Shown here in pieces: positions 2,797 through 17,740 of a stretch of 64,000 bases of DNA. The stretch lies in assembly GCA_964392345.1 (NCBI GenBank), contig CAYMPQ010000001.1:5114-69113 (forward strand), in the 5' to 3' direction. Origin of the DNA: an uncultured Actinomycetota bacterium. Lineage in GTDB: Bacteria > Actinomycetota > Humimicrobiia > Humimicrobiales > Humimicrobiaceae. The notes beneath the pieces were generated by a model. That model saw nothing but the letters and a program-made list of their open reading frames with translations. It was not told where the DNA came from and made no database searches. A program made the position numbers and the translations under genes. Position 1 is the stretch's first letter, and the number at the start of each line of letters is the position of its first letter.

Positions 2797-4212
2797 ATGA
2801 AAAAAACATTATTGTGGATTGTTGTCTTAGTGATAAGCATATCGATGGTAATAGGCTTTTCACTCAGTGGCTGCAAAGAAGAAGCAGCACCTGCTGAAGA
2901 AGCACCTGCTGAAGAGGCACCTGCTGAAGAGGCACCTGCTGAAGAAGCACCTGCAGGTGAGCAGTTCATAACTATTCACTGGGCGCAATGGCAGCCGGCT
3001 GATGCTCTTGAAGAACTTTCTAAAGGCTTTACTGCTGAAACAGGTATTGGTGTAATTGTTGAGCAGACTCCATGGGAAACATTTGTTCAAAAGTATAATA
3101 CAGAGATGATTGCCCGTAGTGATGCCTGGGATATTATAGTTGGTGATAGCCAGGATATTGGTAATATGGCAGTAAACGGACATTATGTAGATTTAACCGA
3201 CTGGGTAATAGAGCATGGAGTTGATAAGAGCTTTACTCCTGCCTCTTTAACTTATTATGCAGAATATCCCAAGGGAGCTGGAAAATATTATGCAGTTCCA
3301 TGTGAAGGAGATGCACTTGGCTGGGCATACCGTAAAGACTTATTTGAAGATCCTGACAATATGGCTGCTTTTGAAGCAAAATATGGGTATGCACTTGGAG
3401 TTCCAGAATCATGGGATGCTCTAAAAGACATAGCTGAATTTTTCCATGACCCAGACAATGATTTCTACGGCGTTGCAATTTATGGGGATAATGGATACGA
3501 TTCACTTGCTATGTTTGCTGAGCAGGTTATCTGGGTTTACGGCGGAGAACTTGGTGATTATGCAACAATGCAGGTTGATGGCCTGTTAAATAGCGAGGGC
3601 GCTATTAAAGGACTAGAATATTACCGGGAACTCTTCCAATTTGTTCCTCCAGGGTTTGGGAATGCATTCTATGTTGCTACAAATGATGCGTTTACAGCTG
3701 GCATAGTTCCAATGGCTACTAATTATTTTGCATTTTTCCCGGCTCTTGCAAATCCTGCGACCAATCCATATGCTGATGTAACAGGTTATTTTGCTTGCCC
3801 GCCGCAGGTAGGTGTAGACGGTGTAGAAAGACAGTTCTCAGCTCTTGGCGGCCAGGGAGCTTCAATGGTAACTTATTCAAAGAAGCAGGATCTGGCATAT
3901 CAGTGGCTGGAATGGTTTGTAAGAGAAGATGTACAGATGGAATGGGTTAAATTAGGTGGCTACACTTGTCATGCAGGAGTTCTAGAGTCTGAAGAATTTC
4001 TTAATGCGGCACCTTATAATCCTGCATTTAAAGTAACCATGGAAATCTTTAAAGACTGGTGGGCATGTCCGGAATATGACATTCTTCTGAGGACATTTAG
4101 TGAGGAGATTGCCAGGTATGTTATTGCAGGAGAAGGAACTGCTGAAGAGACATTAAACAATCTTACAGAAATATGGACAGATATTTTCCAAGAAGCAGGA
4201 TATTATGATTAA
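2797..4212 (+). CDS. ABC transporter substrate-binding lipoprotein, CUT1 (family 1 extracellular solute-binding protein), carbohydrate-type
   Basis: Signal peptide plus lipobox LSGC; 471 aa; aromatic-rich fold typical of sugar SBPs; followed by two MalF/MalG-like permeases; strong RBS. Confidence 0.85.
   Translation: MKKTLLWIVVLVISISMVIGFSLSGCKEEAAPAEEAPAEEAPAEEAPAEEAPAGEQFITIHWAQWQPADALEELSKGFTAETGIGVIVEQTPWETFVQKYNTEMIARSDAWDIIVGDSQDIGNMAVNGHYVDLTDWVIEHGVDKSFTPASLTYYAEYPKGAGKYYAVPCEGDALGWAYRKDLFEDPDNMAAFEAKYGYALGVPESWDALKDIAEFFHDPDNDFYGVAIYGDNGYDSLAMFAEQVIWVYGGELGDYATMQVDGLLNSEGAIKGLEYYRELFQFVPPGFGNAFYVATNDAFTAGIVPMATNYFAFFPALANPATNPYADVTGYFACPPQVGVDGVERQFSALGGQGASMVTYSKKQDLAYQWLEWFVREDVQMEWVKLGGYTCHAGVLESEEFLNAAPYNPAFKVTMEIFKDWWACPEYDILLRTFSEEIARYVIAGEGTAEETLNNLTEIWTDIFQEAGYYD
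2878..2955 (+). repeat. Five tandem in-frame copies of a 15-18 bp unit (gaagaRgcacctgct) encoding (EEAPA)n, a flexible linker just after the lipoprotein Cys
   Basis: Direct tandem repeat visible in DNA; gives EEAAPAEEAPAEEAPAEEAPAEEAPAGE in the SBP and the mirrored SAGASS run in the antisense ORF 2748..2969. Confidence 0.8.
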
Positions 4213-4243
4213 TGCTGTCCTATAATGTTACCCTATGAAAATG

Positions 4244-4270
4244 CTTCCCCCGGGTTCTTCCCGGGGGAAG
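4244..4270 (+). terminator. GC-rich hairpin (cttcccccggg / ttctt / cccgggggaag) between the SBP gene and the permease genes: candidate partial terminator or attenuator giving SBP over-expression
   Basis: Perfect 11-bp inverted repeat read in the sequence; followed by an A-rich rather than U-rich tract, so probably only partial termination. Confidence 0.4.
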
Positions 4271-4302
4271 AAGAAAAATAAGTAGTTTTAGAAGGAATAA
4301 AT

Positions 4303-5223
4303 ATGTTTAAAAGATCAAGAGAAAATCAATTTAATGGCAATCAATTGTTACATCGCAGTATGCGTGATACTACGTTGGTGCGATTATTTATCTTACCAAC
4401 AATTATTTTGTTAATAGCGATAAATATATTTCCTCTGTTTTGGTCTTTGTTTTTAAGTTTCTCTTCTTATTCAGCTAAGGGGGCAACTGAGTGGGGAAAG
4501 AATCCCGAAATGATAGGGGGATTAAATTATTCCCGTATCTTAACCGATCCGAGGATATGGACAAAATTTATAACTACAGCCAAGTATGTAGTTATGTCTG
4601 TGGGTGGAGAAATGATTCTTGGTTTTGGACTTGCTCTTCTCCTCCAATTAAAATTTAAAGGTAAAGGTTTTATAACCACTCTTCTCATATTACCGATGAC
4701 CATGTCTCCTGTAATAGTCGGACTTATGTGGAGATTGTTTTATAACCCAAATTGGGGTATGTTTAATTATTTATTAGGTCTCGGCAAGATAGACTGGATT
4801 TCCGATCCAGCCAGGAATCTTTATTCTATTGTACTTGTAGATATATGGATGTGGACACCTTTTGTCATGCTTCTTTCAATTGCAGGGCTTTCAGCTATTC
4901 CAAAATATTTATATGAAGCTGCAGAAATAGACAGGGCTTCCTGGTGGTTCAAATTTACCCGTATAACTCTACCAATGGTATATCCGCTTCTTTTGGTAGC
5001 TTTAATATTTAGAACCATGGAAGCATTTAAAATATTTGATCTGCCAATGGGAATTACTGGAAGAGGAGCCATGGCGCCACCGCTATTGTCTATGTATCTG
5101 TATAATACTGCATTTGTTACCTGGAAAACAAGTTTTGGCGCCTCGCTTGGTTATATAATGCTAATAATGATTATAGCCATTACAAGCCTCTTTATTAAAT
5201 ATCTTAATAAAGCAAAGACATAG
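4303..5223 (+). CDS. ABC transporter permease, MalF/UgpA-like (CUT1)
   Basis: Six predicted TM segments; EAA loop EAAEIDRASWWFKFTRITLPMV; adjacent to SBP and MalG-like permease. Confidence 0.85.
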   Translation: MFKRSRENQFNGNQLLHRSMRDTTLVRLFILPTIILLIAINIFPLFWSLFLSFSSYSAKGATEWGKNPEMIGGLNYSRILTDPRIWTKFITTAKYVVMSVGGEMILGFGLALLLQLKFKGKGFITTLLILPMTMSPVIVGLMWRLFYNPNWGMFNYLLGLGKIDWISDPARNLYSIVLVDIWMWTPFVMLLSIAGLSAIPKYLYEAAEIDRASWWFKFTRITLPMVYPLLLVALIFRTMEAFKIFDLPMGITGRGAMAPPLLSMYLYNTAFVTWKTSFGASLGYIMLIMIIAITSLFIKYLNKAKT

Positions 5224-5247
5224 CATATTTAACCCGAAAGGAAATTT

Positions 5248-6195
5248 ATGGCAGGGATAGTTAAAAAGAAAAAAAATATTAGCAGGTTTTTTATAATATT
5301 TATACTAATTGTAATTACATTTGTTTATCTCATACCACTTCTGTATGTAGTAAATACATCTTTTAGGCCATGGATTGATATTAAGGAATACCCACCGAAA
5401 ATTATGTTTAAACCGTCAATCAGCAGTTATATAAGGATATTTACATCCAGAGCTGTTTATGCTCCCGGGAAAGAACCCACAGAGGAAGAGTTTGCTAATA
5501 TGAAATGGTATGAACGCATAGTTTATGAAGAGACTAATGAAAAGATAATCCGTATTGGTGATTTACCAAAGAGGTACTTAAATAGTATTATAATTGGTTC
5601 AATAAGTACCGCACTGACAATAATTCTTGGAACGTGTGCAGCATATGGGTTTTCCAGGTTTAAAGTAAGGGGCAAGGATGACCTTTTGTTTTTTATACTT
5701 TCTACTAGAATGCTCCCGCCTGTAGTTGTGGTCATACCAGTTTTTCTTATGTTCAGGTTTCTCGGCCTAAATGATACTCATTTAGGCCTTATACTTTTAT
5801 ACACTGCTTTTAATGTGTCATTTGCTGTCTGGGTGCTTAAAGGATTTATTGATGAGATTCCTATTGAATATGAGGAAGCAGCAATGGTTGACGGCTATAG
5901 CCGTTTACAGGTATTTAGAAAAATAGTTATTCCCCAGGCTTCAACAGGTATTGCTGCAACAGCGGTGTTTTGTTTTGTTTTTGCCTGGAATGAATATGCA
6001 TTTGCCTTTCTTCTTTCAAGGACAGTTGCGCAAACTGTACCTGCGTGGCTGCCTTACCAGATGGGCGTGCTCGGGTATGATTGGGGAGCTGCTGCTGCAG
6101 GAACAGCTGTTTTTCTGCTGCCAGCAATGATATTTACCATTATTTTGAGAAAACACCTGGTGAGAGGTATAACTTTTGGGGCAATAAGAAAATAG
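5248..6195 (+). CDS. ABC transporter permease, MalG/UgpE-like (CUT1) with a long periplasmic loop after TM1
   Basis: EAA motif EAAMVDGYSRLQVFRKIVIPQA; TM topology; operon position. Confidence 0.85.
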   Translation: MAGIVKKKKNISRFFIIFILIVITFVYLIPLLYVVNTSFRPWIDIKEYPPKIMFKPSISSYIRIFTSRAVYAPGKEPTEEEFANMKWYERIVYEETNEKIIRIGDLPKRYLNSIIIGSISTALTIILGTCAAYGFSRFKVRGKDDLLFFILSTRMLPPVVVVIPVFLMFRFLGLNDTHLGLILLYTAFNVSFAVWVLKGFIDEIPIEYEEAAMVDGYSRLQVFRKIVIPQASTGIAATAVFCFVFAWNEYAFAFLLSRTVAQTVPAWLPYQMGVLGYDWGAAAAGTAVFLLPAMIFTIILRKHLVRGITFGAIRK

Positions 6196-6537: not shown

Positions 6538-7503
6538 ATGAAGTTAGGCGTAATGGCAAATTGTTTTGGTGATAAATCATGGGAAGATGCATGCAAAGCT
6601 GCAAGTGATGCTGGCCTTAGAGCAATTGAACCTGGTTGCGGAGGGTTTGTTGGGAAAGCGCACTGTAATCCTGCCGAGTTATTGAAAGACAAAAATGCTA
6701 TAAAAAAATTCATGGAAGCAGCTGAGAAAAATGGACTGGAAATAAGTGCCCTGTCCTGTCACGGAAATGCAATCCATCCTCAAAAAAGCATTTCAGATGA
6801 GCATACCGCTGATCTGGTAGCATCAATTGAACTTGCTTCAAAAATTGGCGTAAAAGTAATAAACGATTTTGCAGGGTGCCCTGGTGCAGGAGAAGATGCC
6901 AAGTATCCAAACTGGATTACCTGTCCATGGCCGCCATATTTTGGGGATGCTGTCAAATGGCAGTGGGAAAAGAAGGTAGTCCCATTCTGGAAAGAAATGG
7001 TTGAAAAGGCTAAAAAGGCAGGAGTCAAATTTGCTTTTGAGATGCATCCCGGAGATGTAGTTTACAATACTGAAGCTTTGCTGAAGCTGAGAGAAGAAGT
7101 TGGAGCTGAAGAAATTTCCTGCAACTTTGATCCAAGCCACTTATTCTGGCAGGGTATGGACCCAATTGTGTGCATAAAAAAATTGGGCGATGCCATAGTT
7201 CATGTCCATGCAAAAGACAGTAAAGTTGACAGGTCAGTTGTTGATTTTAGAGGAGTAAATGACTGGAAACACTATGGAGATTTAGCTAAAAGGGCATGGA
7301 CATTCAGGACTGTAGGATATGGCCATGGTGTAGAGTTCTGGAATGACTTTGTGTCTGCTCTCAGGCTGGTTGGGTATGATGGGGTTATAAGTATTGAGCA
7401 CGAAGACCCGTTGATGTCTGCAAATGAGGGTTTGAGCAAAGCTATTGAATTTCTAAACAAGGTGCTTCTTTATGAAAAAGTTGGTGAAATGTGGTGGGCA
7501 TAG
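6538..7503 (+). CDS. Sugar phosphate isomerase/epimerase (xylose-isomerase-like TIM barrel, AP_endonuc_2 fold)
   Basis: 321 aa; E/D/H metal-ligand pattern (AIEPG, EMHPGD, HVHAKD) typical of the IolE/IolI/LgdB-type TIM-barrel family. Confidence 0.7.
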   Translation: MKLGVMANCFGDKSWEDACKAASDAGLRAIEPGCGGFVGKAHCNPAELLKDKNAIKKFMEAAEKNGLEISALSCHGNAIHPQKSISDEHTADLVASIELASKIGVKVINDFAGCPGAGEDAKYPNWITCPWPPYFGDAVKWQWEKKVVPFWKEMVEKAKKAGVKFAFEMHPGDVVYNTEALLKLREEVGAEEISCNFDPSHLFWQGMDPIVCIKKLGDAIVHVHAKDSKVDRSVVDFRGVNDWKHYGDLAKRAWTFRTVGYGHGVEFWNDFVSALRLVGYDGVISIEHEDPLMSANEGLSKAIEFLNKVLLYEKVGEMWWA

Positions 7504-7617
7504 ATTAAAGCCTGCTCCAAGTCCAGGTTTTATTTGATTTAAATTTGATAAGTTAAACAATTAAATATGGTTTATAAAATTTTAAAATTAATAAGTTTAA
7601 GGCAGGTGAGGTAATTT

Positions 7618-8817
7618 ATGGCAGAGAAAAAAGTAGGCTTTATAGGGATGGCTGCAGAAAAGAAAGCAGGCAAGATTCCAGAAATTGGGGTTGGGATGCT
7701 TGGCTACTCTTTTATGGGGAAGGCCCATTCTAATGGGTACAAGAAAATGCCTTACATCTTCTGGCCTCCTCCAGCAAAGCCAAAACTAATAAAAATGTGT
7801 GGAAGAACTGAAGAAAAGGTAGCCGAGGAAGCAAAGCGGTATAGATACCTCGAGTATTGTACAGATTGGCACGAGCTTATAAATGATGACAGGATTGATA
7901 TTTTTGTTAATGTTGGACCAAACAATATTCATGCTGAACCATGCATAGAAGCTGCAAAAGCTGGAAAAAACATTGTATGCGAAAAGCCTCTTGCCAGAAA
8001 TTCCGGGGAAGCAAAAGAAATGCTGGAAGCAGCAAAAAAAGCAGGAGTAAAACACCTGTGTAACTTCAATTATAGAATGGTTCCAGCTCTTGTACTTGCA
8101 AAAAATCTAATTTCGGATGGGAAGATTGGAAAAATATTTCACTTTAGAGCAAAGTACCTGCAGGAATGGATAGTAAATCCTAATTTTCCACTAATATGGA
8201 GGCTTGACAAAAAAGTTTGCGGCAGTGGAGCTATGGGTGATTTAGGGGCACATATAGTAGATCTTGCCAGATGGCTGTGCGGGGAGCCAGAAAGTGTTAT
8301 GGCTATGACCAAAACCTTTGTTACCGAAAGGCCTCTTCCGGATAATCCATCAAAGAAAGAAAAAGTAGAGGTTGATGATGCCTTTGTTTCTACTGTTGAA
8401 TTTAGAAATGGTGCAATTGGAGTATTGGAAGCCTCCAGGTTTTGCCCTGGCCGTAAAAATTACGAAACTATTGAAATTAATGGTGAAAAAGGAAGCATCT
8501 GGTGGGATCTTGAGAATATGAATAATCTTCATGTTTACTGGGCAGATGAAGAACCTGCTGATACAAGAGGATTTCACTGTATAAATGTTACTGAGTCATA
8601 TCACCCTTATTATGACAAGTGGTGGCCCCATGGCCATATAATTGGATGGGAGAATACATTCGTACATACTGCATACAATATGGTGAATGCAGTTGTAAAT
8701 GATGCCAAATTAGAACCTATGGTGGCAACTTTTGAAGATGGCTACAGGACAGCTGTAATCTGTGATGCAATGCTGAGGTCTGCAGAGTCAGGGAGAAAAG
8801 AGGAGATATCCTATTAA
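7618..8817 (+). CDS. Gfo/Idh/MocA-family NAD(P)-dependent oxidoreductase
   Basis: N-terminal Rossmann (IGVGMLGYSFMGKAHS), EKPLA motif, 399 aa; family typical of inositol/glycoside/levoglucosan 3-dehydrogenases. Confidence 0.8.
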   Translation: MAEKKVGFIGMAAEKKAGKIPEIGVGMLGYSFMGKAHSNGYKKMPYIFWPPPAKPKLIKMCGRTEEKVAEEAKRYRYLEYCTDWHELINDDRIDIFVNVGPNNIHAEPCIEAAKAGKNIVCEKPLARNSGEAKEMLEAAKKAGVKHLCNFNYRMVPALVLAKNLISDGKIGKIFHFRAKYLQEWIVNPNFPLIWRLDKKVCGSGAMGDLGAHIVDLARWLCGEPESVMAMTKTFVTERPLPDNPSKKEKVEVDDAFVSTVEFRNGAIGVLEASRFCPGRKNYETIEINGEKGSIWWDLENMNNLHVYWADEEPADTRGFHCINVTESYHPYYDKWWPHGHIIGWENTFVHTAYNMVNAVVNDAKLEPMVATFEDGYRTAVICDAMLRSAESGRKEEISY

Positions 8818-8879
8818 ATCCTATTAAAAGGTTAAGGCTTGAAGAGATAAATTGTTATATGTACTACTGGAGGGAATAA

Positions 8880-9731
8880 ATGAAATTTGGAATAAATACA
8901 CTATTGTTTACTGGTAACTATACAGACGAACATGTGAAAAGCTTGACTGGAAAATTTAAGGAATTAGGTTTTGATGGAGTGGAAATCGCACTTGGGAAAA
9001 AAGGTGATATTGATTACAAAAAAACACTGGGGGTATTTAAAGATAACGGGCTTGTATGCTCTTCAGTGTGCGGGCTTTTTGGAGAAGACAGGGATATCAG
9101 AGGACCAAAAAAAGAATATATTGAAGGCGGGCTTGCTTATATAAGAGATTGTCTTGAGGCATGTACAGATCTTGGCTGCAATGTTTTTGTGGGCCCTGTT
9201 TATTCTGCTGTTGGCCGTGCAGGCATGGTCCCGGAAAACGAGCGAAAGGTCCAATGGGATACAGTTGTTGAAAATTTAGGCAAAGCTTGTGAGTGGGCTG
9301 AAAAATATGGGGTATTTATAGCAATAGAGCCATTAAACAGATTTGAGACAGATTTTATCAATATCTGCAAGGACGCCGTAAAAATGGTCAAAGATGTTGG
9401 AAGCAAAATGTTAAAGGTTCATCTTGACACATTCCATATGAATATTGAGGAAAAGAATTCTGCAATGGCAGTTTTAGATGCCGGCGATTTGCTTTATTTA
9501 CTTCATGCGAGCGAAAATGACAGAGGTGCTGCAGGTACGGGGCAGGTTAACTGGAAAGCTATTGCAGATGCACTGCGAAGGATTAATTATGACAGATGGG
9601 TGGTAGTAGAATCATTTACACCTGAAAATAAAGTTATAGCAAAAGCTGCCTCAATTTGGAGACAAACCGAAAAAAGTGATTTTGTGCTTGCTGAAAAAAG
9701 TTTAAAGTTCCTGAAAGGGCTTTTAAGTTAG
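8880..9731 (+). CDS. Ketose 3-epimerase-like protein (D-tagatose/D-psicose/L-ribulose 3-epimerase family, xylose-isomerase-like TIM barrel)
   Basis: MKFGINTLLF start, IEPLNRFE and HLDTFHMNIEE motifs match the DTE/DPE consensus (IEVLNRFE, MLDTFHMNIEE) recalled from characterised enzymes; 283 aa. Confidence 0.65.
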   Translation: MKFGINTLLFTGNYTDEHVKSLTGKFKELGFDGVEIALGKKGDIDYKKTLGVFKDNGLVCSSVCGLFGEDRDIRGPKKEYIEGGLAYIRDCLEACTDLGCNVFVGPVYSAVGRAGMVPENERKVQWDTVVENLGKACEWAEKYGVFIAIEPLNRFETDFINICKDAVKMVKDVGSKMLKVHLDTFHMNIEEKNSAMAVLDAGDLLYLLHASENDRGAAGTGQVNWKAIADALRRINYDRWVVVESFTPENKVIAKAASIWRQTEKSDFVLAEKSLKFLKGLLS

Positions 9732-9772: not shown

Positions 9773-10870
9773 ATGGCAGAAATAATTTTAAAACACATTT
9801 TTAAGAGATTTGACGACCTTGTTGCAATTAATGATTTAAGCCTGGACATCAAAGAGAGGGAATTCTTGGTCCTTCTTGGGCCATCAGGCTGTGGGAAAAC
9901 GACAACTCTTAGATGCATCTCTGGATTGGAAGTGCCGGATGAGGGGGAAATTTTAATAGGCGGAGAAGATGTTACAAATAAGAGAGCATCACAAAGGGAT
10001 ATAGCATTTGTTTTTCAGCTGTATGCCTTATATCCCCATCTGACAGTTTACGGTAATATAGCTTTTCCCTTGTTGACACAAAGAACTGATAAAAAAAAGA
10101 TAGAGCAGGAAGTAAATAGAGCTGCAGAAATTTTACAGATAAAACACATATTGAACAAAAAACCAAAAGAACTTTCAGGCGGGGATATGCAAAGAGTTGC
10201 TCTTGGAAGGGCAATTGTTAGAAGGCCAAAAGCTTTTTTACTTGATGAGCCGATAGGAACTCTGGATGCAAAATTTAGAGAAGAAATGCGAACCGAACTC
10301 AAGAGACTCCATGTTGACATAGGCGCTACTACAGTATATGTAACTCATGACCAGAGCGAAGCAATGGCTATGGGGGACATTGTTGCAATAATGAATCTTG
10401 GGGTTCTGCAACAAGCTGGGACACCTTATGAAATATACACCAATCCAAAAAATTTATTTGTAGCAAATTTTATTGGGACCCCTGGCATGAATTTTATAAA
10501 TTGTAAACCGGAAAGAGATTCAAATGGTAAGCTTGTGTTAAGGCTATCATTGATTGATGCCTGTATAGCAATATCTGATGAAATTCAAAAAATAATTTTA
10601 GATAGGAAAGAAGAAGAGCTAGTTTTAGGAATTAGGCCAGAAAATGTAGCGTTGAGCCTGAAGAAAGAGTGGAATTATATTAAATCAGAAGTTTTTGTTG
10701 TTGAAGCGACAGGCTCCTATAATATTATAGATGTAAGGTTAGGCAGCGATATTGTTAGAGTCCGAACACTGCCAACTGTGGCACCAAAAATTGGAGAAAC
10801 TGTGTATATCGGTATTGATATGGGAAGAATAAGCATCTTTAATAAAAAAGATGGGAATTCGATAATGTAA
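9773..10870 (+). CDS. ABC transporter ATP-binding protein, MalK/UgpC-like (NBD plus C-terminal regulatory TOBE-like domain)
   Basis: Walker A GPSGCGKTT, signature LSGGDMQRVALGRA, Walker B FLLDEP, H-loop; 365 aa. Confidence 0.9.
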   Translation: MAEIILKHIFKRFDDLVAINDLSLDIKEREFLVLLGPSGCGKTTTLRCISGLEVPDEGEILIGGEDVTNKRASQRDIAFVFQLYALYPHLTVYGNIAFPLLTQRTDKKKIEQEVNRAAEILQIKHILNKKPKELSGGDMQRVALGRAIVRRPKAFLLDEPIGTLDAKFREEMRTELKRLHVDIGATTVYVTHDQSEAMAMGDIVAIMNLGVLQQAGTPYEIYTNPKNLFVANFIGTPGMNFINCKPERDSNGKLVLRLSLIDACIAISDEIQKIILDRKEEELVLGIRPENVALSLKKEWNYIKSEVFVVEATGSYNIIDVRLGSDIVRVRTLPTVAPKIGETVYIGIDMGRISIFNKKDGNSIM

Positions 10871-10898: not shown

Positions 10899-11990
10899 AT
10901 GGCAGAGGTAAAATTAAATTCACTTACAAAGACTTTTGGTGATGTAGCTGCTGTGGATAATATGAATCTGGAAATTAAGGATAAAGAGTTTTTTGTTCTA
11001 CTCGGGCCAACAGGAGCCGGGAAAACTACGACATTAAGATTAATAGCTGGGTTAGAGAAAGCAGATAAGGGAGAAGTTTATATAGATAATATCTGTGTAA
11101 ATGGTCTTAGCCCAGCTGTAAGAGATGTTGCATTTGTGTTTCAGTATTACACTCTTTATCCCAATTATACTGTAAAACAAAATTTGGAATTTCCATTGAG
11201 GTCCAATCTTAGGAAAATGCCCCAGGCAGCAATTGATAAAAAGGTTTCCGAGGTTGCAGAGGTTTTGCACGTCGAGCATTTAATGAACAGGGAGACTGTA
11301 AATCTAAGCGGTGGTGAAATGCAGAGAGTGGCAATAGGCAGAGCCATAGTAAGAGCGCCAAAAGTTTTTCTGATGGATGAACCGCTGTCAAATTTGGATG
11401 CAAAACTAAGAGAAGAGATGAGAGCAGAGCTTGCAAGGCTTCACTTAGATATGGGATCTACTTTTTTTTATGTAACACATGACCAGATTGAAGCAATGAC
11501 AATGGGCGATAGGATAGCAGTACTTAATGAGGGCAAAATACTTCAAATTGGTACTCCTAATGAAATATATAATTCACCCAAAGATGTTTTTGTTGCTAAA
11601 TTTGTTGGAAGTCCTGCAATAAATTTATTTGATGCATCTATTGACGGAAATAATTTAATAATTGGCAAAGGGGCAATGATTTGCAGTGTTGTCGGGAAGC
11701 AATCAAGCTTGCTCAAGGGTTATAATAAGAAGAATGCAATTTTAGGAATAAGACCTGAAGATATTGAAATGTCGAGGGAAAAGAAAGGGGCCAATTCCAT
11801 TAAATGTTCTGTATATTTTAAACAGAGCATGGGCGTGGAAGATATTCTAAATTTAAAAATTGACAAAATTTTCTTTAAAGCGGTTGCTCCTGTAAAGTTT
11901 ATGGCTAAAGTTGGTGAAGTAGTTTATGCAAATATCAATATGGATAGAACCCACCTGTTTGATGCTGAAACAGAAACTTGCATAGTATAG
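10899..11990 (+). CDS. Second, distinct MalK/UgpC-like ABC ATP-binding protein
   Basis: Walker A GPTGAGKTT, signature LSGGEMQRVAIGRA, Walker B FLMDEP; 363 aa; clearly paralogous to but not identical with the preceding gene. Confidence 0.9.
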   Translation: MAEVKLNSLTKTFGDVAAVDNMNLEIKDKEFFVLLGPTGAGKTTTLRLIAGLEKADKGEVYIDNICVNGLSPAVRDVAFVFQYYTLYPNYTVKQNLEFPLRSNLRKMPQAAIDKKVSEVAEVLHVEHLMNRETVNLSGGEMQRVAIGRAIVRAPKVFLMDEPLSNLDAKLREEMRAELARLHLDMGSTFFYVTHDQIEAMTMGDRIAVLNEGKILQIGTPNEIYNSPKDVFVAKFVGSPAINLFDASIDGNNLIIGKGAMICSVVGKQSSLLKGYNKKNAILGIRPEDIEMSREKKGANSIKCSVYFKQSMGVEDILNLKIDKIFFKAVAPVKFMAKVGEVVYANINMDRTHLFDAETETCIV

Positions 11991-12079: not shown

Positions 12080-13273
12080 ATGAAAAAAAGAGCTGCAGTC
12101 GAAAAAGCACTGGAGAGGAGCAATGGTATTTTAAATCTTAAGCCTGCGTGGGTAGCACGCGATTTTCTTCCTCCAGGCAGAAGGCTGGGGCTAAAAGAAA
12201 ATGAATACGAAGCAGGAAAGCGCGGCTGGATATCAGAGAGGTGGCTGGCATCCGTTACAAAGGCCGATAATGCAGTTGGCCCCCAGGATGAAGGACTTAG
12301 TTATTTAGCCATGGACGGCAACGAGAAAATAACTTTAAAGGAGGCAGTAGAAGTTGCAGGAGACCTGATAATGGGAAGACAGTATGCAAAGACCCATACC
12401 GGGTTAGGGAGGCTTGCAAAAATATATGATTTTGATGCCAGGATACCTTATCATATCCACCAGATGAAAAAAGATGCAGCTCTTGTTGGAAGAAATCCAA
12501 AAGATGAAGCTTATTATTTTCCCGAAGATGTAGATGCGGGCCCTCACCCTGAAACTTTTTTTGGCGTACATCCTTATATTGCAGAACAAAAAAAATATGA
12601 AATACTGCTTCCGTATCTGGAGGATTGGAACAGTGATTTAATATTAAAACATTCCAGAGCATACCTCAATGTTGCCGGAGAAGGTTTTTTCCTGCCTTCA
12701 GGAGCGCTCCATGGGCCGGGGACAGCACTAACAATAGAGCTTCAAGAAAATTCTGATGTTTTTGCTATGCTTCAGGCGCTAAATGCGGGAAAGATTATTT
12801 CAAAAGAGCTGCTGTTTAAAGATGTTCGCAGGGAAGACAGGGGAAAATATGGTGAAAGAGTGATCCTCGGTCAAATAGACTGGGAAACTAATGGGGATCC
12901 ATATTTCTATGAAAATCATCATCTTGAACCAAAACTGGTTGAAGAAACCAATCAGGAAGGCGGACAGGAGCACTGGATATATTATAATACAAGTAAGTTC
13001 AGTGGAAAGAAATTAACAGTAAAACCCGGGTGCACCTTTACCAGCACGGATAGAGGAGTTTACAACATACTTGTATGGAAAGGCAGCGGCAAATTTGACG
13101 GGCATGCAATAGAGGCCGATAATTTTAATTGTGATGAACTTTTAATTTCATTTGACAGAGCAGTAAAACCGCTAAATGTAGAAAATACTGGGACAGAAGA
13201 GTTGCAAATAATAAAGTTTTTTGGCCCCGACATAAATACCAATGTCCCAGTGATCAAACAGTATAGAAGTTGA
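12080..13273 (+). CDS. Cupin-fold protein resembling class I mannose-6-phosphate isomerase (PMI-like sugar isomerase)
   Basis: LAKIYDFDARIPYHIHQ and FFLPSGALHGPGTALTIELQENSD resemble the PMI type I motifs (LLDVKEDTSIKVHPDD, YYVPSGTLHA...LETQQNSD) from memory; 397 aa. Confidence 0.45.
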   Translation: MKKRAAVEKALERSNGILNLKPAWVARDFLPPGRRLGLKENEYEAGKRGWISERWLASVTKADNAVGPQDEGLSYLAMDGNEKITLKEAVEVAGDLIMGRQYAKTHTGLGRLAKIYDFDARIPYHIHQMKKDAALVGRNPKDEAYYFPEDVDAGPHPETFFGVHPYIAEQKKYEILLPYLEDWNSDLILKHSRAYLNVAGEGFFLPSGALHGPGTALTIELQENSDVFAMLQALNAGKIISKELLFKDVRREDRGKYGERVILGQIDWETNGDPYFYENHHLEPKLVEETNQEGGQEHWIYYNTSKFSGKKLTVKPGCTFTSTDRGVYNILVWKGSGKFDGHAIEADNFNCDELLISFDRAVKPLNVENTGTEELQIIKFFGPDINTNVPVIKQYRS

Positions 13274-13355: not shown

Positions 13356-14240
13356 ATGACGAAAAAAACATCAATTGGAGGATGGGCGTATATATGGGGC
13401 GGCTACGAGGAAAGCCCTATCCCTTTTAAAGATGTTGTTGAAAGGCTTTCTGTCCTTGGATTTGACGGTATTGAAATGGCTGCATTTCCTCCGCACCTGG
13501 AACCTAATACAAAAGAGAAGCGCAAAGAAATTAAGAAAATGCTGGATGATTATAAGTTAGGCGTGTCCGGCCTGGCTGCACCATTTCCATCACCGGCAAC
13601 ATCAAAGAAGAGTGATTATCTGGATGCGGTTAAAGCAAATCTTGAAATATGCAGCGACCTTGATATTCCCAAGCTCAGGGTTGACACTGTTGACCCGCCA
13701 ACTGGAATACCGGGCGGCATGGATTACGAGACCTGTTTTTCTAAAGTAGCCGAAGTCTGGAATGATGCTTCTGAAATATGTATGAAAAATAATGTGAAAC
13801 TTATATGGGAATTTGAGCCTGGTTTTTTATTTAACAAGCCAGGTGAAGTAGTCAGGATGGTTTACAAAGTGGAACACTCAAACTTTTCAATATTGTACGA
13901 TTCCTGTCATGCGCATATGTGTTCAGTAGTGGGTGCGCGGCAGTTAGGCAAAAAGGAGACGCTTCCAGGAGGCGTGGTTCAATTTACATATATGTTAACA
14001 GGGAAAATTGGACATATCCATTTAATTGATTCAGATGAGACTTTGCATGATGGTGATACAAGCACACATGCTCCTCTTGGAACAGGGGTACTGGATTTTG
14101 ACAAGATTATTCCAGCAATACTGGAAGCCGGATATACTGATGAGTGGTGGACAATTGACCTGTGCTTCTGGCCAAAAGCTTTGGATGTAACTGAAGACAA
14201 TAAAAAGTATCTTGACAAATTGATTAAAAAATTTGGATAA
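13356..14240 (+). CDS. Sugar phosphate isomerase/epimerase (xylose-isomerase-like TIM barrel)
   Basis: 294 aa; LGFDGIEMAA, WEFEPG, DSCHAHM and IHLIDSD pattern of AP_endonuc_2 TIM barrels. Confidence 0.7.
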   Translation: MTKKTSIGGWAYIWGGYEESPIPFKDVVERLSVLGFDGIEMAAFPPHLEPNTKEKRKEIKKMLDDYKLGVSGLAAPFPSPATSKKSDYLDAVKANLEICSDLDIPKLRVDTVDPPTGIPGGMDYETCFSKVAEVWNDASEICMKNNVKLIWEFEPGFLFNKPGEVVRMVYKVEHSNFSILYDSCHAHMCSVVGARQLGKKETLPGGVVQFTYMLTGKIGHIHLIDSDETLHDGDTSTHAPLGTGVLDFDKIIPAILEAGYTDEWWTIDLCFWPKALDVTEDNKKYLDKLIKKFG

Positions 14241-14308: not shown

Positions 14309-15391
14309 ATGAAAGTGGCTGAGAAAATGAAAGCCCAGGTTTTTTATGAAGCTGAAAAGATGAAGCTTGAAGAGATACCAATTCCAGAGATTACAGATAT
14401 AGATATGCTGGTAAGAGTAAAAAATGTTGGAATATGCGGATCTGATATATCCTACTACTATGGCCTTAGTCCTCTTGGCACAGCTACAGGAAAAGGACCG
14501 CTGGTTTTAGGTCATGAATTTACCGGGGAAGTTGCAAAAGTTGGGAAAGTACCAGCAGGTATGGGACTTTTTAAAGAAGGGGACAGGGTTGTAGTTAATC
14601 CAGTTCAGCACTGCAATGCTTGTTATGCGTGTGCTTCTGGCCAAACTCATCTATGTGAAAATTCAAGTGTCCCGGGAGTTACCGTTAACGGTGGTTTTGC
14701 AGAATACTGTGTATCAAAATATACAGGTTTGTTTAAGCTTCCCGATGGTATGAGTTATGCTGCAGGTGCCTTTACAGAACCATTTGCCTGCGCTGTAAAT
14801 GGCATGAAGAAGTTAGAGATCGAGCCTGGCCAGTTTGTAGCAGTGTTTGGGCCAGGTGCAATTGGACTCATGATGGTACAGCTGGCAAAATCAATTGGTG
14901 CAGGAAAGGTTGCATTAATTGGAACCAGGGATTACCGTCTGGAAATGGGCAAAGAAAATGGAGCAGATTATATATTTAATACCAGAAATAAAGACTCAAA
15001 ATACTATGCAGCTGATCTTAAAAAAGCTATATCAGACTTAACAAATGGAAAATTAGCTGACAGGGCAATAGTTCCGACAAGCTCAAACGATGCTTTTGAG
15101 CAGGCTATTGATGTAACTGGAAATTGTGCAATTTTAGTACACTTTGGCTTGCCCAATGAAGGTGATGTCATACATGTCCCTGCACTTAGTTTTCACACTA
15201 TGGATAAACAAATAAGAGCAGCCTGGCTGGCGCCGCTGTCCTGGCCCACCACAATTCGATGTATGGCAGAAGGGCTTGTGAATGTTGAGGCATTGCTAAC
15301 GCACAGATATCCTTTAGAGGATACAGAAAAGGCAATAATAAATCTAAAAAACAGGGTTGGAAATCCAATGAAAGTTCAAATTGTGCTGTAA
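14309..15391 (+). CDS. Zn-dependent medium-chain alcohol/polyol dehydrogenase (sorbitol/xylitol/L-iditol dehydrogenase-like)
   Basis: GICGSD and GHEFTGEV zinc motifs, structural-Zn Cys cluster (CNACYACASGQTHLC), Rossmann GPGAIGL; 360 aa. Confidence 0.85.
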   Translation: MKVAEKMKAQVFYEAEKMKLEEIPIPEITDIDMLVRVKNVGICGSDISYYYGLSPLGTATGKGPLVLGHEFTGEVAKVGKVPAGMGLFKEGDRVVVNPVQHCNACYACASGQTHLCENSSVPGVTVNGGFAEYCVSKYTGLFKLPDGMSYAAGAFTEPFACAVNGMKKLEIEPGQFVAVFGPGAIGLMMVQLAKSIGAGKVALIGTRDYRLEMGKENGADYIFNTRNKDSKYYAADLKKAISDLTNGKLADRAIVPTSSNDAFEQAIDVTGNCAILVHFGLPNEGDVIHVPALSFHTMDKQIRAAWLAPLSWPTTIRCMAEGLVNVEALLTHRYPLEDTEKAIINLKNRVGNPMKVQIVL

Positions 15392-15451: not shown

Positions 15452-16579
15452 TTGGTGGAGGGAGCAGACATGGATGAAATTATCAACACAAAATATCAGA
15501 AGATACAAAGAGATAAGGGTGAGCTCATAGAGCACATGAGCACTTTCAACCTAAAGGTAATGCCCTCTGTGGGAATATGGTATTTTACGCCTGGTGGCGG
15601 AAGATTTCATGACTCATTTGTCTCGCCAAAAGATATACCAGAAAAAATAGAAATGGCTGCTGAAATGGCAAAGTATGGTGTAAAAGCAATAGAGGCCCAT
15701 TATCCTTCTGAGGTAAACGAAGAAAATTACCACCTGTATCAAAAATTGGAGAAAGAAACAGGCATAAAGCTTATTAGCTGCTACCCGGCAATTTTTTTCC
15801 CAAAAGAATATGAATTTGGTTCACTGTCAAATCCATATAAAAAATATAGGGACAAGGCAGTAGAAACTCTTATAGGCTGTTTAAAGTTTGCAAAGGATAA
15901 TGGCCTGCATCATGCAGGCATATGGCCAGGGAGCGATGGCTACCTTTACTCACTTGGAACTGTTTTTTATAAGATGTGGGATATGTTTGAAGACGCAGTA
16001 GCTTATGCAATGGATGAAGTCCCGGGAGTAGCAGTTGCAATCGAACCAAAACCATATGAACCTGCACCAAACAATATATACAGGACAACAGCAGACGGAT
16101 TGTTAGCGTGCCGCGACATAGAGTTAAGACTTAAATCAGAACAAAACAGGAATCTTCTTTCCGAAGGGCGTGCTTTGCTGGGCATGCAGCCTGAGATAGG
16201 GCACATAAGAATGGGGTATGAAGATACGCCATATGCATTTTGCAGGGCAATGAGACAGGGCAGGTTGTTTCATACCCATTGGAATAGTCAGCCTCTGGGA
16301 AACTATGACCAGGATTTAAATGTGGGAGTTGTTGAATGGCAGCAGGCCGAGGCTGCTATGTATGTTTTAAAGATGCATGGCTACAGAGAATATTATGGAA
16401 TTGATATTAATCCTGAGAGGATGCCTGCTGAAAAGGCTGTTGAGATAAACTGTCTTGCATTAAATATTATAAATGACAAAATTAACAACCTTCCCCATGA
16501 AGAAATAATAGAATCATATTTTGACCCTGAAAACCACAGGGGAGATATAGAGCTGATACTTGCAAAGGCAATGAAATAG
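15452..16579 (+). CDS. Divergent xylose-isomerase-family protein (class I XylA-like), with an altered second-metal-site motif
   Basis: AIEPKPYEP, QPEIGHIRM and LFHTHWNSQPLGNYDQDLNVG parallel the class I XylA motifs (AIEPKPNEP, NPEVGHEQM, LFHIDLNGQ..KYDQDLRFG) recalled from Streptomyces XI; 375 aa. Confidence 0.6.
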   Translation: MVEGADMDEIINTKYQKIQRDKGELIEHMSTFNLKVMPSVGIWYFTPGGGRFHDSFVSPKDIPEKIEMAAEMAKYGVKAIEAHYPSEVNEENYHLYQKLEKETGIKLISCYPAIFFPKEYEFGSLSNPYKKYRDKAVETLIGCLKFAKDNGLHHAGIWPGSDGYLYSLGTVFYKMWDMFEDAVAYAMDEVPGVAVAIEPKPYEPAPNNIYRTTADGLLACRDIELRLKSEQNRNLLSEGRALLGMQPEIGHIRMGYEDTPYAFCRAMRQGRLFHTHWNSQPLGNYDQDLNVGVVEWQQAEAAMYVLKMHGYREYYGIDINPERMPAEKAVEINCLALNIINDKINNLPHEEIIESYFDPENHRGDIELILAKAMK

Positions 16580-16621: not shown

Positions 16622-17740
16622 ATGTCTGGTAACAAAATAAAGGTTGCAGTAATTGGCCTTGGCTTTGGTGCAGACTTTATCCCAATTTATCAAAACCATC
16701 CTGATTGTGAGTTGTATGCAATATGCAGAAGAAATAAGGAAAAGTTAAATGAATGCGGTGATAAATATGGCATTGAGCGAAGGTTCACTGACTACAGGGA
16801 TATTTTAGAAATAGATGAGGTTGATGCAATCCATATCGTAACACCAGTAAAAAGTCATGCCGAGTTAGCTATCAATTCGCTTAATGCAGGTAAACATGTT
16901 GCCTGCACGGTTCCAATGGCTACCACAGCTGAGGAATGCATGGAGATAGTTAAGGCAAGAAGAAAAGCAGGAAAAGTTTATATGATGATGGAAACTTCTG
17001 TTTATACTAAAGAATTTCTATACGTTAAAGATCTTGTTGATAGCGGCAAATTAGGGAAAATTCAGTTTTTGCGCGGCTCGCATCAGCAGGATATGGAAGA
17101 TTGGGGCGGGGCATGGCCCGGCTTTCCTCCCATGCATTATGCTACGCATGCTGTCAGCCCCTGTGCTGCTCTTGCCAGAGCTGATGTAGAATCTGTATTT
17201 TGCTTTGGATCAGGGAAAATACGCGAAGAATATATAAAAAAATATAACTCTCCTTTTGCGATTGAAACAACTCTTATAAAGTTTAAGAATTCCGATCTGG
17301 CAGCTGAGGTTACAAGGTCTCTTTATGATACTGTCCGCCAGTATATTGAAAGTTTTGATGTTTATGGAGGCAAACTCTCATTTGAATGGAACAGGTTAAG
17401 CGATGAAGACCCTACTCTGTTTACAGGAAAAGAAGATGCTGTAAGGGTAGAAGTACCTGATACAGGTAATATGCTGCCGAAGGAAATTGCCAGGTTCACA
17501 AGAGCTGAAGATGTGTTGGATGATGAAGAAAAAAAACATCTTTCTTTTGTACAGGGATCTGGACATGGGGGTTCTCACCCACATATGGTACATGAGTTTA
17601 TAAGGGCAATTGTTGAGAAAAGAGACTCAGCAATAGATGTTGAGACTGCAGCAAACTGGACATGTACTGGTATATGCGCCCACGAGTCAGCTATGAGCGG
17701 AGGGGAAAGAGTATATTTGCCAGATTTTTACAATATTTAA
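16622..17740 (+). CDS. Gfo/Idh/MocA-family oxidoreductase (second copy)
   Basis: N-terminal Rossmann KVAVIGLGFGADFIP, 372 aa, family-typical layout. Confidence 0.8.
   Translation: MSGNKIKVAVIGLGFGADFIPIYQNHPDCELYAICRRNKEKLNECGDKYGIERRFTDYRDILEIDEVDAIHIVTPVKSHAELAINSLNAGKHVACTVPMATTAEECMEIVKARRKAGKVYMMMETSVYTKEFLYVKDLVDSGKLGKIQFLRGSHQQDMEDWGGAWPGFPPMHYATHAVSPCAALARADVESVFCFGSGKIREEYIKKYNSPFAIETTLIKFKNSDLAAEVTRSLYDTVRQYIESFDVYGGKLSFEWNRLSDEDPTLFTGKEDAVRVEVPDTGNMLPKEIARFTRAEDVLDDEEKKHLSFVQGSGHGGSHPHMVHEFIRAIVEKRDSAIDVETAANWTCTGICAHESAMSGGERVYLPDFYNI

Follow-up and report, generated by a model that had tools for sequence, protein, structure and literature searches.

The locus described here raises the question of what a gene of the ketose 3-epimerase family does inside a sugar-transporter cluster, and on which compound its product acts. 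The window, a 64,000-nucleotide stretch of DNA from an uncultured Actinomycetota bacterium, carries this gene (hereafter the target) on the forward strand at positions 8880–9731. The reading frame starts with ATG, stops with TAG (9729–9731) and encodes a protein of 283 amino acids, which its PF01261 match, PDB matches and fold matches place among the TIM-barrel proteins of the ketose 3-epimerase family. A ribosome-binding site, GGAGGG, is visible on the same strand at 8869–8874, 5 nt from the start codon. The neighbouring genes lie 62 nt upstream and 41 nt downstream, and a scan of these two gaps found no terminator-like sites. Promoter and terminator scans returned counts indistinguishable from those of shuffled sequence, and an Rfam search of the cluster gave no matches. 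Homologues of the target protein at 65–95% identity reach E = 1e-183, and the identical protein is found on five metagenome contigs. The target is a genuine gene, well above chance expectation.

To which family the protein belongs was answered consistently by profile, sequence and structure comparisons. It matches PF01261 with 142.6 bits. The best NCBIfam model is that of D-psicose 3-epimerase (PsicseEpim, NF051856; 166.4 bits, curated cutoff 300), and the runner-up is IolO (NF041099; 124.1 bits, cutoff 300). The models for Hyi, IolE and UlaE all score at most 67 bits. The best PDB sequence matches are all DTE, DAE or LRE enzymes (E = 3e-34 to 5e-25), led by the D-tagatose 3-epimerase of P. 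cichorii (PcDTE; 33% identity, E = 3e-34, 121 bits); TM0416 follows at E = 2e-23. Identity to the A. globiformis KEase (AgKEase) is 30%, and PcDTE and AgKEase are themselves 33% identical. An AF2 model of the target (pLDDT 81, pTM 0.84) contains eight strand/helix repeats, and the top 50 Foldseek matches to this model in the PDB are all ketose 3-epimerases of the LRE, DPE, DAE or DTE type (TM 0.81–0.87). Against the solved members of the family, which comprised PcDTE (2ou4), the LREs of M. loti, A. globiformis and Methylomonas (3vyl, 5zfs and 7cj4) and the DPEs of A. tumefaciens and C. cellulolyticum (2hk0 and 3vni), the target has the same (beta/alpha)8 fold and an identity of 30–33%, which is about the identity that these enzymes share among themselves. 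The agreement of the PDB, NCBIfam and Foldseek matches bears out the family assignment made in the first-pass annotation, and we predict that the target is a sugar epimerase that depends on a metal and belongs to the D-tagatose/D-psicose/L-ribulose 3-epimerase family. Its profile scores exclude it from the equivalogs of characterised enzymes, since 166 bits falls short of the D-psicose 3-epimerase cutoff of 300. Homologues already bear the JGI name 'D-psicose/D-tagatose/L-ribulose 3-epimerase'; the family-level annotation is sound, has already been made by public pipelines and does not describe a new kind of system.

Consistent with this assignment, we found that the active site is retained. 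The two motifs that had been singled out as mirroring those of DTE and DPE enzymes, IEPLNRFE (residues 149–156) and HLDTFHMNIEE (residues 181–191), do so: in the HMMER alignment they match 'alevvnrfe' and 'qldtfhmniee' of the P. cichorii enzyme. The metal-binding and catalytic tetrad E150, D183, H209 and E244, which includes the catalytic Glu pair, is complete, as are the O1–O3-binding residues E156, H186 and R215. Together with F246, these residues occupy the positions listed as metal-binding, catalytic or substrate-binding in DAEs (PMC7934257, PMC10094494), and they stand at identical residue numbers in the DPEs of A. tumefaciens and C. cellulolyticum. Among close homologues the whole tetrad is invariant (E150 and D183 in 13/13), and across 139 family representatives E150 is kept in all 139, D183 in 138, E244 in 136 and H209 in 121. 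An inosose dehydratase or AP endonuclease lacking the Glu pair had been named as the alternative placement; the IolE model scores 24.7 bits on the target, and both glutamates are present.

The distal part of the substrate pocket differs. In DAEs, a hydrophobic pocket for C4–C6 is formed by Tyr6, Trp14, Ile66, Thr107, Trp112 and Phe246 (PMC7934257). Five of these six residues are changed in the target (Y6 to N, W14 to Y, I66 to L, T107 to V and W112 to G), F246 alone is kept, and V111 and R113 flank G112. Because of these replacements, the substrate may not be a common ketohexose. The same pocket reads F7/W15/C66/L108/W113 in PcDTE and so varies among accepted members, which indicates that it marks specificity rather than family membership. 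By contrast, the long lid after beta-8 is common to the target and the ketose 3-epimerases. In the AF2 model, 24 residues separate E244 from the helix at 269–282, although this stretch is modelled with low confidence (pLDDT below 50 at 248–263 in the lid, and also at 214–220 in the loop of R215). The target lid aligns without gaps to PcDTE and AgKEase, and lids of 24–25 residues are described for LREs and DAEs, as against 7 residues in TM0416 (PMC8167858). The short C-terminal helix of 14 residues in the AF2 model resembles that of the dimeric type represented by PcDTE and MetLRE (PMC8167858). Three motifs, DRDIRG, YSAVGRA and SFTPxxKVIAKAASIWR, are invariant and specific to the clade of the target.

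In a neighbour-joining tree of 139 leaves, the target falls in a separate clade of 18, PcDTE and AgKEase fall in another of 9, and the common ancestor of the two clades spans 88 of the 139 leaves; this tree carries no bootstrap values, has just two characterised KEases in it, both as partial sequences, and is indicative only. It suggests that the target clade is a separate branch with no characterised member, and the literature searched yielded no characterised enzyme inside it, with the Planctomycete DAE and LguG sequences lying outside the comparison. A sister clade at about 50% identity adjoins PF06439 '3-keto-disaccharide hydrolase' genes. Comparison with characterised DPE, DTE and LRE enzymes, the check that had been proposed for this gene, thus upheld the family and did not equate the protein with any one of them (30–33% identity, 166 against 300 bits, a separate clade and a different pocket). 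The view that such enzymes are uncommon did not hold. Among the 8,000 best-matching candidates scored, relatives of the target with E ≤ 1e-10 make up at least 7,586 clusters at 90% identity; at 50% identity there are 2,154 such clusters, and more than 540 stretches of GTDB species genomes encode a relative.

We next consider the cluster in which the target lies, all of it on the forward strand. At its head is a LacI-family regulator (232–1239), followed by a ROK-family protein with an N-terminal wHTH (1435–2649; NagC/Mlc-type regulator), both recognised by Pfam and NCBIfam; the ROK-family gene is kept upstream of the solute-binding protein gene in four related loci (L001, L004, L012 and L013). 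The solute-binding protein (SBP; 2797–4212) is of the CUT1 type (Pfam SBP_bac_1). Its best solved relative, at a weak match, is 5iai (E = 3.8e-16), whose ligand is ribitol (PMC8468352), and the next-best match binds beta-1,2-gluco-oligosaccharides. Two ABC permease genes follow (4303–5223 and 5248–6195; BPD_transp_1), then a 321-residue TIM barrel (TIM_A; 6538–7503) that resembles 2zds and, weakly, 8ro4, a 2-hydroxy-3-keto-glucal hydratase. Directly upstream of the target is a Gfo/Idh/MocA oxidoreductase, Gfo1 (7618–8817), which is levoglucosan dehydrogenase (LGDH)-like (PDB 4h3v, E = 1e-96; 6a3f, E = 4e-90) and scores 390 bits against a cutoff of 650 on NF052479. Homologues of TIM_A and Gfo1 are paired on the Rhodococcus plasmid pWB1. 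Downstream of the target are two tandem MalK/UgpC-like ABC ATPase genes (9773–10870 and 10899–11990; Pfam/NCBIfam), and the placement of the gene between a Gfo/Idh/MocA gene and these ATPase genes was as the first-pass annotation had described it.

The cluster continues with a conserved 397-residue protein, Unk397 (12080–13273), which is recognised by its conservation with the target and has no Pfam, NCBIfam or PDB match. Its AF2 model, from a shallow alignment, has a pLDDT of 44, and an hhalign comparison with E. coli ManA (E = 0.052) gave a suggestive motif alignment, an unproven hint that Unk397 may be PMI/cupin-like. Then come a 294-residue PF01261 TIM barrel for which we found no solved or curated relative (TIM_C; 13356–14240) and a Zn-dependent dehydrogenase of the polyol (sorbitol/iditol/xylitol/arabinitol) dehydrogenase type (Zn-ADH; 14309–15391; ADH_N and ADH_zinc_N). 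The best solved relatives of this dehydrogenase are polyol 2-dehydrogenases and ketose reductases (ketose reductase, 2.4e-42; sorbitol dehydrogenase, 2e-38), and among the NCBIfam models it scores highest on IolM (202 bits, cutoff 450), with IdnD at 126 bits. The remaining genes encode a 375-residue TIM barrel distantly related to xylose isomerase and rhamnose isomerase by profile and PDB matches (TIM_D; 15452–16579), a second Gfo/Idh/MocA oxidoreductase (Gfo2; 16622–17740; Pfam/NCBIfam), an FGGY-family sugar kinase (FGGY1; 17790–19358; Pfam/NCBIfam) whose PDB matches favour none of glycerol, gluconate and xylulose kinases over the others, and the xylulokinase XylB (19488–21011), which scores 580 bits on TIGR01312, above the cutoff of 380.

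To determine which of these genes accompany the target elsewhere, we compared 28 loci from Actinomycetota and Spirochaete MAGs that encode target homologues 54–86% identical to it; the counts below refer to subsets of these 28, with 13 being the loci that have enough upstream sequence. Zn-ADH was the most constant partner (14/16), followed by TIM_C (12/16), Gfo2 (11/16), Unk397 (11/16, often as the first gene after the target) and TIM_D (9/16). The CUT1 SBP and permeases were present with the target in 9/13 loci, both ATPase genes were kept straight after it in many loci, and the order Perm2–target–ATPase1 recurred in L017–L022 and L024. An FGGY kinase stood at the end of the cluster in nine related loci, and L016 had the order target–ATPases–TIM_D–XylB; linkage to XylB at 40% identity or above was limited to the window and one of 16 loci. 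The Gfo/Idh/MocA neighbour that had been stressed at first is present here and is not a general partner: Gfo1 was found in 9 of the 13 loci and was missing from 4, and the SBP and target occurred together without Gfo1 or TIM_A in L017–L020, L022 and L024. Gfo1 and TIM_A are an optional module. All nine loci that have both flanks nevertheless contained at least one Gfo/Idh/MocA gene.

That Zn-ADH is the most conserved partner and that a Gfo/Idh/MocA gene is always present together point to a keto intermediate that is made in the cytoplasm. The earlier suggestion that epimerisation acts on the imported substrate itself is unproven, and the constancy of these dehydrogenases points away from it. 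On balance, we lean towards the view that the target is a keto-sugar C3 epimerase acting in the middle of a route for the catabolism of an imported polyol or rare sugar, by way of a cytoplasmic 2-keto sugar. The ABC transporter would bring in the polyol or rare sugar; Zn-ADH, a Gfo/Idh/MocA oxidoreductase or both would oxidise it to the 2-keto sugar; the target would turn this into its C3 epimer; and the isomerase-like proteins and the FGGY kinase would process the product. From the family we infer a divalent metal of the Mn2+/Co2+ type, held by E150, D183, H209 and E244, that would bind O2 and O3 of a substrate whose head is CH2OH–C(=O)–CHOH–; its O1 and O2 would be held by E156, H186 and R215. 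A cis-enediolate would form when either E150 or E244 takes the C3 proton; the other glutamate of the pair would then reprotonate it from the opposite face, leaving C3 inverted. The leading guess for the substrate is a ketopentose that would lead to D-xylulose 5-phosphate, because the last gene of the cluster encodes a bona fide xylulokinase. Counter to the main reading are the weakness of the SBP match to a ribitol binder and the rarity of the XylB linkage.

Other readings account for parts of the same evidence. It is unlikely, in our judgement, that the target is a classical free-ketose 3-epimerase for D-psicose, D-tagatose or L-ribulose that acts directly on the sugar imported by the ABC transporter. 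The family evidence from NCBIfam, the PDB and Foldseek fits such an enzyme equally, the JGI name of the homologues says as much, and in many genomes the gene sits between permease and ATPase genes (as in L017–L022 and L024). However, an imported ketose as substrate would make the kept dehydrogenases superfluous, yet the target keeps a polyol-type Zn dehydrogenase and one or more Gfo/Idh/MocA genes with it; moreover, the C4–C6 pocket for fructose or psicose is not conserved and the score lies below the D-psicose 3-epimerase equivalog cutoff. A rather more specialised role, which we consider quite unlikely, is suggested by E. coli YcjR, a 3-keto-D-glucoside (3-dehydro-D-guloside) 4-epimerase of the same superfamily with the same metal site (33% identity, E = 3e-26). 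The LGDH-like Gfo1 would then make a 3-keto-pyranoside or 3-keto-sugar, the target would epimerise the carbon beside its carbonyl, and a second dehydrogenase would reduce the product, for a net inversion of one hydroxyl. The grouping of a Zn-ADH, a TIM-barrel epimerase and Gfo/Idh/MocA dehydrogenases by a CUT1 ABC transporter mirrors ycjNOP–ycjQRS, Gfo1 is adjacent in 9/13 loci and TIM_A is weakly like the 2-hydroxy-3-keto-glucal hydratase. Both the PF06439 genes beside the sister clade and the abutment of the target on an LGDH-like gene favour 3-keto-sugar chemistry and run counter to the main reading. But YcjR scores 82 bits against 121 for DTE, which with LRE is clearly above it, has Gln where the target has E156 and is without the long lid segments, and the Gfo1/TIM_A module is dispensable (L017–L020, L022 and L024). 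The window Zn-ADH and Gfo proteins are only 28–30% identical to YcjQ and YcjS over partial lengths. Equivalence to YcjQRS was rejected on these grounds of weakly related partners and the differences at E156 and in the lid, and is left as a minor rival.

The IolO of T. maritima (TM0416) and the LguG of Luteolibacter, both 5-keto-L-gluconate 4-epimerases, are DTE-related TIM barrels that act after a dehydrogenase in a catabolic pathway, and their chemistry is the same inversion beside a 2-keto group as that proposed for the target. LguG is annotated as a D-tagatose 3-epimerase, and its 5-keto-L-gluconate 4-epimerase activity is experimental (PMC12632266). By analogy, the target could be a 5-keto-aldonate 4-epimerase (for example, interconverting 5-keto-L-gluconate with D-tagaturonate) working on the product of Zn-ADH as an aldonate 5-dehydrogenase, with the same C3 inversion in a 6-carboxy ketose. 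Zn-ADHs of this type do include aldonate 5-dehydrogenases, an observation that counts against the main reading; IolO is the second-best NCBIfam model, TM0416 matches at E = 2e-23, and the best model for Zn-ADH is IolM, with a further match to IdnD. In addition, FGGY1 is about as similar to gluconate kinase as to other kinases, and there are charged or polar replacements near the pocket region (R113 and N6). We nonetheless think this distinctly unlikely. On the IolO model the target reaches 124 of the 300 bits required, the TM0416 lid has 7 residues against about 24 in the target (PMC8167858), and the cluster contains neither a lactonase nor an altronate/mannonate dehydratase, KDG kinase or aldolase, and no downstream genes of a uronate pathway. 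The usual cargo of CUT1 SBPs is neutral sugars. Equivalence to T. maritima IolM/N/O was likewise set aside as a minor rival, with scores below cutoff and no IolN-like match. Finally, it is very improbable that the target is a non-epimerase, whether a 3-keto-sugar beta-eliminase or hydratase like LgdB1/LgdB2 or some other type of PF01261 enzyme (hydroxypyruvate isomerase or inosose dehydratase, for example). LgdB1, the 3-keto-levoglucosan beta-eliminase, belongs to PF01261, has about 275 residues and is found beside LgdA in 253 of 265 genomes (PMC10066097). The target, with 283 residues, is of similar length, and it too has an LGDH-like Gfo/Idh/MocA gene next to it, as well as an ABC transporter. 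However, Gfo1 lies below the LGDH equivalog cutoff, the Hyi, IolE and UlaE models reach at most 67 bits, and the catalytic Glu pair and ketose O1-binding residues are kept. A tblastn search with Gfo1 led to a K. pneumoniae plasmid with an lgd-like cluster, in which a 271-residue PF01261 protein is a candidate LgdB1 by synteny only; the target is 23% identical to this candidate (E = 5e-6), and its identification as LgdB1 was rejected.

For the main reading, in which the target inverts C3 of a 2-keto sugar formed in the cytoplasm, the neighbourhood matters as much as the enzyme. Enzymes of the ketose 3-epimerase family serve in the production of D-allulose and other rare sugars, and research has treated them almost entirely as catalysts; for few of them is a natural substrate or pathway known. 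To our knowledge, the characterised members are not known for a conserved operon context such as this one. Since the distal pocket is different in the branch of the target, its substrate range could differ too, and a cluster conserved across two phyla provides a testable physiological context. We suggest, tentatively, that the target and its partners (Zn-ADH, the Gfo/Idh/MocA oxidoreductases, two more PF01261 proteins, a xylose-isomerase-like protein, Unk397, an FGGY kinase and the CUT1 transporter, which has two ATPase genes) may make up a pathway, not described before, by which uncultured anaerobic Actinomycetota (Humimicrobiaceae-like) and Spirochaetes break down a polyol or rare sugar. If so, Unk397 would represent a family that gains a function, and the target would be a ketose 3-epimerase with a defined physiological job, in a family for which few natural roles are known.

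The gene at 8880–9731 (+ strand) is real, because homologues at 65–95% identity occur in many metagenomes (E values down to 1e-183) and five further public contigs encode an identical protein; where the source of a homologue is named, it is a MAG of 'Candidatus Humimicrobiaceae' or of another member of the Actinomycetota. Its intact reading frame runs for 283 codons from an ATG, 5 nt 3' of a GGAGGG Shine–Dalgarno sequence, to a TAG stop, and the reverse strand across it carries many stop codons. Both peptides quoted by the first-pass annotation are present (IEPLNRFE, residues 149–156; HLDTFHMNIEE, residues 181–191), and HMMER aligned them with 'alevvnrfe' and 'qldtfhmniee' in PcDTE, the D-tagatose 3-epimerase from Pseudomonas cichorii. 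Annotation of the window also bore out the reported placement between a Gfo/Idh/MocA gene and transporter ATPase genes. The Gfo/Idh/MocA oxidoreductase gene (Gfo1, 7618–8817) ends 62 nt upstream, and the first of two MalK/UgpC-like ATPase genes (9773–10870 and 10899–11990) begins 41 nt downstream. Every gene within 232–21011 lies on the + strand. A terminator scan found no terminator-like sites between the gene and its neighbours, and promoter and terminator scans of the window, which has a G+C content of 37%, gave the same result as shuffled sequence.

The encoded protein belongs to the ketose 3-epimerase family, as had been proposed, and the corresponding activity is predicted. Pfam returned nothing beyond the broad PF01261 xylose-isomerase-like TIM barrel. 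The top NCBIfam model was D-psicose 3-epimerase (166 bits), followed by 5-keto-L-gluconate epimerase IolO (124 bits), both below the curated cutoff of 300; models for hydroxypyruvate isomerase, fructoselysine 3-epimerase, L-ribulose-5-P 3-epimerase and IolE reached at most 67 bits. Among PDB sequences, each of the top 22 matches (E=3e-34 to 5e-25) was a D-tagatose, D-allulose or L-ribulose 3-epimerase, with TM0416 (2e-23) and then E. coli YcjR (4e-22) ranked next. Identity to PcDTE is 33% and to the Arthrobacter globiformis enzyme 30%; these two share 33%. An AlphaFold2 model (pLDDT 81, pTM 0.84) retrieved exclusively ketose 3-epimerases as its first 50 Foldseek matches (TM 0.81–0.87).

In this family, Glu150, Asp183, His209 and Glu244 bind the metal, Glu150 and Glu244 are the catalytic bases, and Glu156, His186 and Arg215 bind O1–O3 of the ketose, with Phe246 also listed (PMC7934257; PMC10094494). 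All of these residues are kept, with the same numbering as in the Agrobacterium and Clostridium enzymes. As in L-ribulose and D-allulose 3-epimerases, 24 residues follow β8, compared with 7 in TM0416 (PMC8167858), and YcjR has deletions in this stretch. The outcome that would have spoken against the annotation, namely a best match among non-epimerase TIM barrels and loss of the glutamate pair, was therefore not observed.

The protein nevertheless differs from characterised enzymes. Of the six-residue pocket that surrounds C4–C6 of fructose or psicose in D-allulose 3-epimerases, it shares Phe246 only; Tyr6, Trp14, Ile66, Thr107 and Trp112 are replaced by Asn6, Tyr14, Leu66, Val107 and Gly112. 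Three invariant motifs (GxDRD[IL]RG, YSAVGRA and ESFTPxxKVIAKAASIWR) are particular to its clade. A rough neighbour-joining tree built from 139 sequences, with YcjR as outgroup and without bootstrap support, placed it in an 18-leaf clade with approximately 50% identical homologues of Verrucomicrobia, Akkermansia, Bifidobacteriaceae, Acidobacteriota and Chitinophagaceae, and PcDTE and the Arthrobacter enzyme in another clade of 9 leaves. Neither the tree nor the literature yielded a characterised enzyme within the 18-leaf clade. The protein is thus a member of an uncharacterised clade but of a familiar type, already so annotated by automatic pipelines (JGI, 'D-psicose/D-tagatose/L-ribulose 3-epimerase'; one NCBI MAG copy, 'D-tagatose 3-epimerase'). 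Nor are such enzymes uncommon, as had been claimed: among 1.84 billion cluster representatives, relatives formed 191 clusters at E<=1e-30 and 2154 at E<=1e-10.

The surrounding + strand cluster begins with a LacI and then a ROK regulator, followed by a CUT1-type solute-binding protein and two permeases (2797–6195). The closest solved relative of the binding protein is 5iai (E=4e-16), whose crystal contained ribitol (PMC8468352); its second-ranked match binds beta-1,2-gluco-oligosaccharides. A TIM barrel, TIM_A (6538–7503), resembles 2zds and, weakly, the 2-hydroxy-3-keto-glucal hydratase 8ro4. Gfo1 scored 390 bits against a levoglucosan dehydrogenase model (cutoff 650) and matched 4h3v (1e-96) and levoglucosan dehydrogenase 6a3f (4e-90). 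The two ATPase genes directly 3' of the epimerase gene belong to one CUT1-type sugar ABC operon, and the pair is kept in many related loci. CUT1 systems usually have a single ATPase gene whereas two stand in tandem here, so a heterodimeric ATPase is possible. Beyond a 397-residue protein, Unk397 (12080–13273), lie a third PF01261 TIM barrel of 294 residues, TIM_C (13356–14240), for which no solved or curated relative was found; a Zn-dependent alcohol dehydrogenase, Zn-ADH (14309–15391), whose top solved relatives are ketose reductase and sorbitol, L-iditol, xylitol and L-arabinitol dehydrogenases; TIM_D (15452–16579), a distant relative of xylose or rhamnose isomerase; a second Gfo/Idh/MocA gene, Gfo2 (16622–17740); an FGGY kinase (17790–19358); and the xylulokinase XylB (19488–21011), which passed its equivalog cutoff (580 versus 380 bits). 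Immediately downstream, 21150–28179 encodes a SorC-type regulator and then a 2-oxoacid (acetoin/pyruvate-type) dehydrogenase complex (E1 alpha, E1 beta, E2 and E3), with a lipoate-protein ligase gene (25986–26714) on the opposite strand. A T-box leader (32968–33255, +; Rfam RF00230, 109.8 bits) lies 5' of a 453-residue ORF (33473–34834).

We took 80 loci from a GTDB scan of one genome per species and mapped all window proteins onto them by tblastn. The cluster was kept in 28 loci of Humimicrobiaceae-like Actinomycetota and Spirochaetes, whose epimerase homologues are 54–86% identical. The usual order was binding protein, two permeases, [TIM_A–Gfo1], epimerase, two ATPases, [Unk397], [TIM_C], Zn-ADH, [TIM_D], Gfo2 and [FGGY kinase]; an FGGY kinase closed the cluster in nine loci. 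Among loci with sufficient flanking sequence, the epimerase homologue was accompanied by Zn-ADH in 14/16, TIM_C in 12/16, Unk397 and Gfo2 in 11/16 each, the binding protein and permeases in 9/13, Gfo1 in 9/13 and TIM_A in 5/13; some Gfo/Idh/MocA gene was present in all nine loci with both flanks. Another transporter accompanied the enzyme genes in four loci (L002, L003, L008 and L015), and one (L016) read epimerase–ATPases–TIM_D–XylB.

The levoglucosan dehydrogenase-like Gfo1 is an optional insertion, because in six loci (L017–L020, L022 and L024) permease 2, the epimerase gene and the ATPases are contiguous without TIM_A or Gfo1. In the window, the insertion is preceded by a gap of 342 nt. 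The Gfo/Idh/MocA neighbour stressed by the first-pass annotation does adjoin the epimerase gene, but it is dispensable. TIM_A and Gfo1 (6538–8817, +) form a two-gene module that comes and goes independently of the remaining cluster; their homologues also adjoin each other on Rhodococcus plasmid pWB1 (L083:7945-10176; 33% and 50% identity), and the pair may process 3-keto-sugars or anhydrosugars.

Relatives at approximately 50% identity (L029–L080, for example L030:10001-10843) lacked the entire cluster and stood in a wholly different context. A homologous secreted protein lay within four genes downstream in 28/36 of these loci, and the sequence examined carried PF06439 ('3-keto-disaccharide hydrolase'). 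Of three recurring upstream neighbours examined, one had a ThuA domain; this protein occurred in 3 loci (one sequence examined).

Family knowledge suggests how the protein, whose gene, family, fold, active-site residues and conserved neighbourhood are established here, would act. A Mn2+/Co2+-type ion held by E150, D183, H209 and E244 would bind O2 and O3 of a 2-keto sugar, with E156, H186 and R215 holding O1 and O2, and E150 and E244, on opposite faces, would take and give back the C3 proton via a cis-enediolate. From its context, the substrate may be a keto sugar that the polyol-type Zn-ADH, a Gfo/Idh/MocA enzyme or both make in the cytoplasm out of an imported compound, and the C3 epimer would pass to the isomerase-like proteins and the FGGY kinase. 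We favour this pathway by a small measure. C3 epimerisation taken alone is considerably more probable, because an imported ketose or a 5-keto-aldonate substrate would involve the same chemistry. The annotated idea that epimerisation acts directly on what is imported is probably wrong, as the frequencies of Zn-ADH and Gfo/Idh/MocA genes point to a keto sugar made in the cell; we consider an imported ketose an unlikely substrate.

The family name does not settle the physiological substrate, as Luteolibacter LguG, annotated as a D-tagatose 3-epimerase, proved by experiment to be a 5-keto-L-gluconate 4-epimerase (PMC12632266). Its reaction would be the same inversion beside a CH2OH-CO- head, so the conserved O1–O3 residues are compatible with an IolO/LguG-like role, but the cluster lacks uronate-pathway genes and the lid is unlike that of TM0416, making this role more doubtful still. 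E. coli ycjQRS has a strikingly similar layout (Zn-ADH, epimerase, Gfo/Idh/MocA and CUT1 transporter). YcjR is also 33% identical, but it scores below the D-tagatose 3-epimerases and has Gln at position 156 and no lid, where our protein has Glu156 and a lid, and the dehydrogenases of the window are related only distantly to YcjQ and YcjS. LgdB1, a PF01261 protein of approximately 275 residues nearly always next to LgdA (PMC7676230, PMC10066097), was for that reason a candidate identity; an lgd-like cluster is located on a K. pneumoniae plasmid, and its 271-residue PF01261 protein, a candidate LgdB1 by synteny, is only 23% identical (E=5e-6), which led us to reject it. For the favoured pathway of intracellular keto-sugar formation and epimerisation, our leading guess, from weak indicators, is a pair of ketopentoses (D-ribulose/D-xylulose or L-xylulose/L-ribulose) on a route that ends at XylB, because XylB and FGGY kinases are present, a relative of the solute-binding protein binds ribitol, and L-ribulose 3-epimerases rank among the best structural matches.

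Unk397 (+ strand, between the ATPases and TIM_C) had no matches in Pfam, NCBIfam or PDB sequences. It has more than 3400 homologues in all; the more than 100 that were listed, from Actinomycetota, Anaerolineae and Spirochaete MAGs, were 72–99% identical, and in related loci the gene frequently lies directly 3' of the epimerase gene. It may be a cupin-type sugar isomerase, given a weak likeness, at the level of motifs, to phosphomannose isomerase of class I (hhalign E=0.052); its AlphaFold2 model, from a shallow alignment, had a pLDDT of 44. The conserved cluster around the epimerase gene, with Unk397, poses a more interesting question than the epimerase itself.
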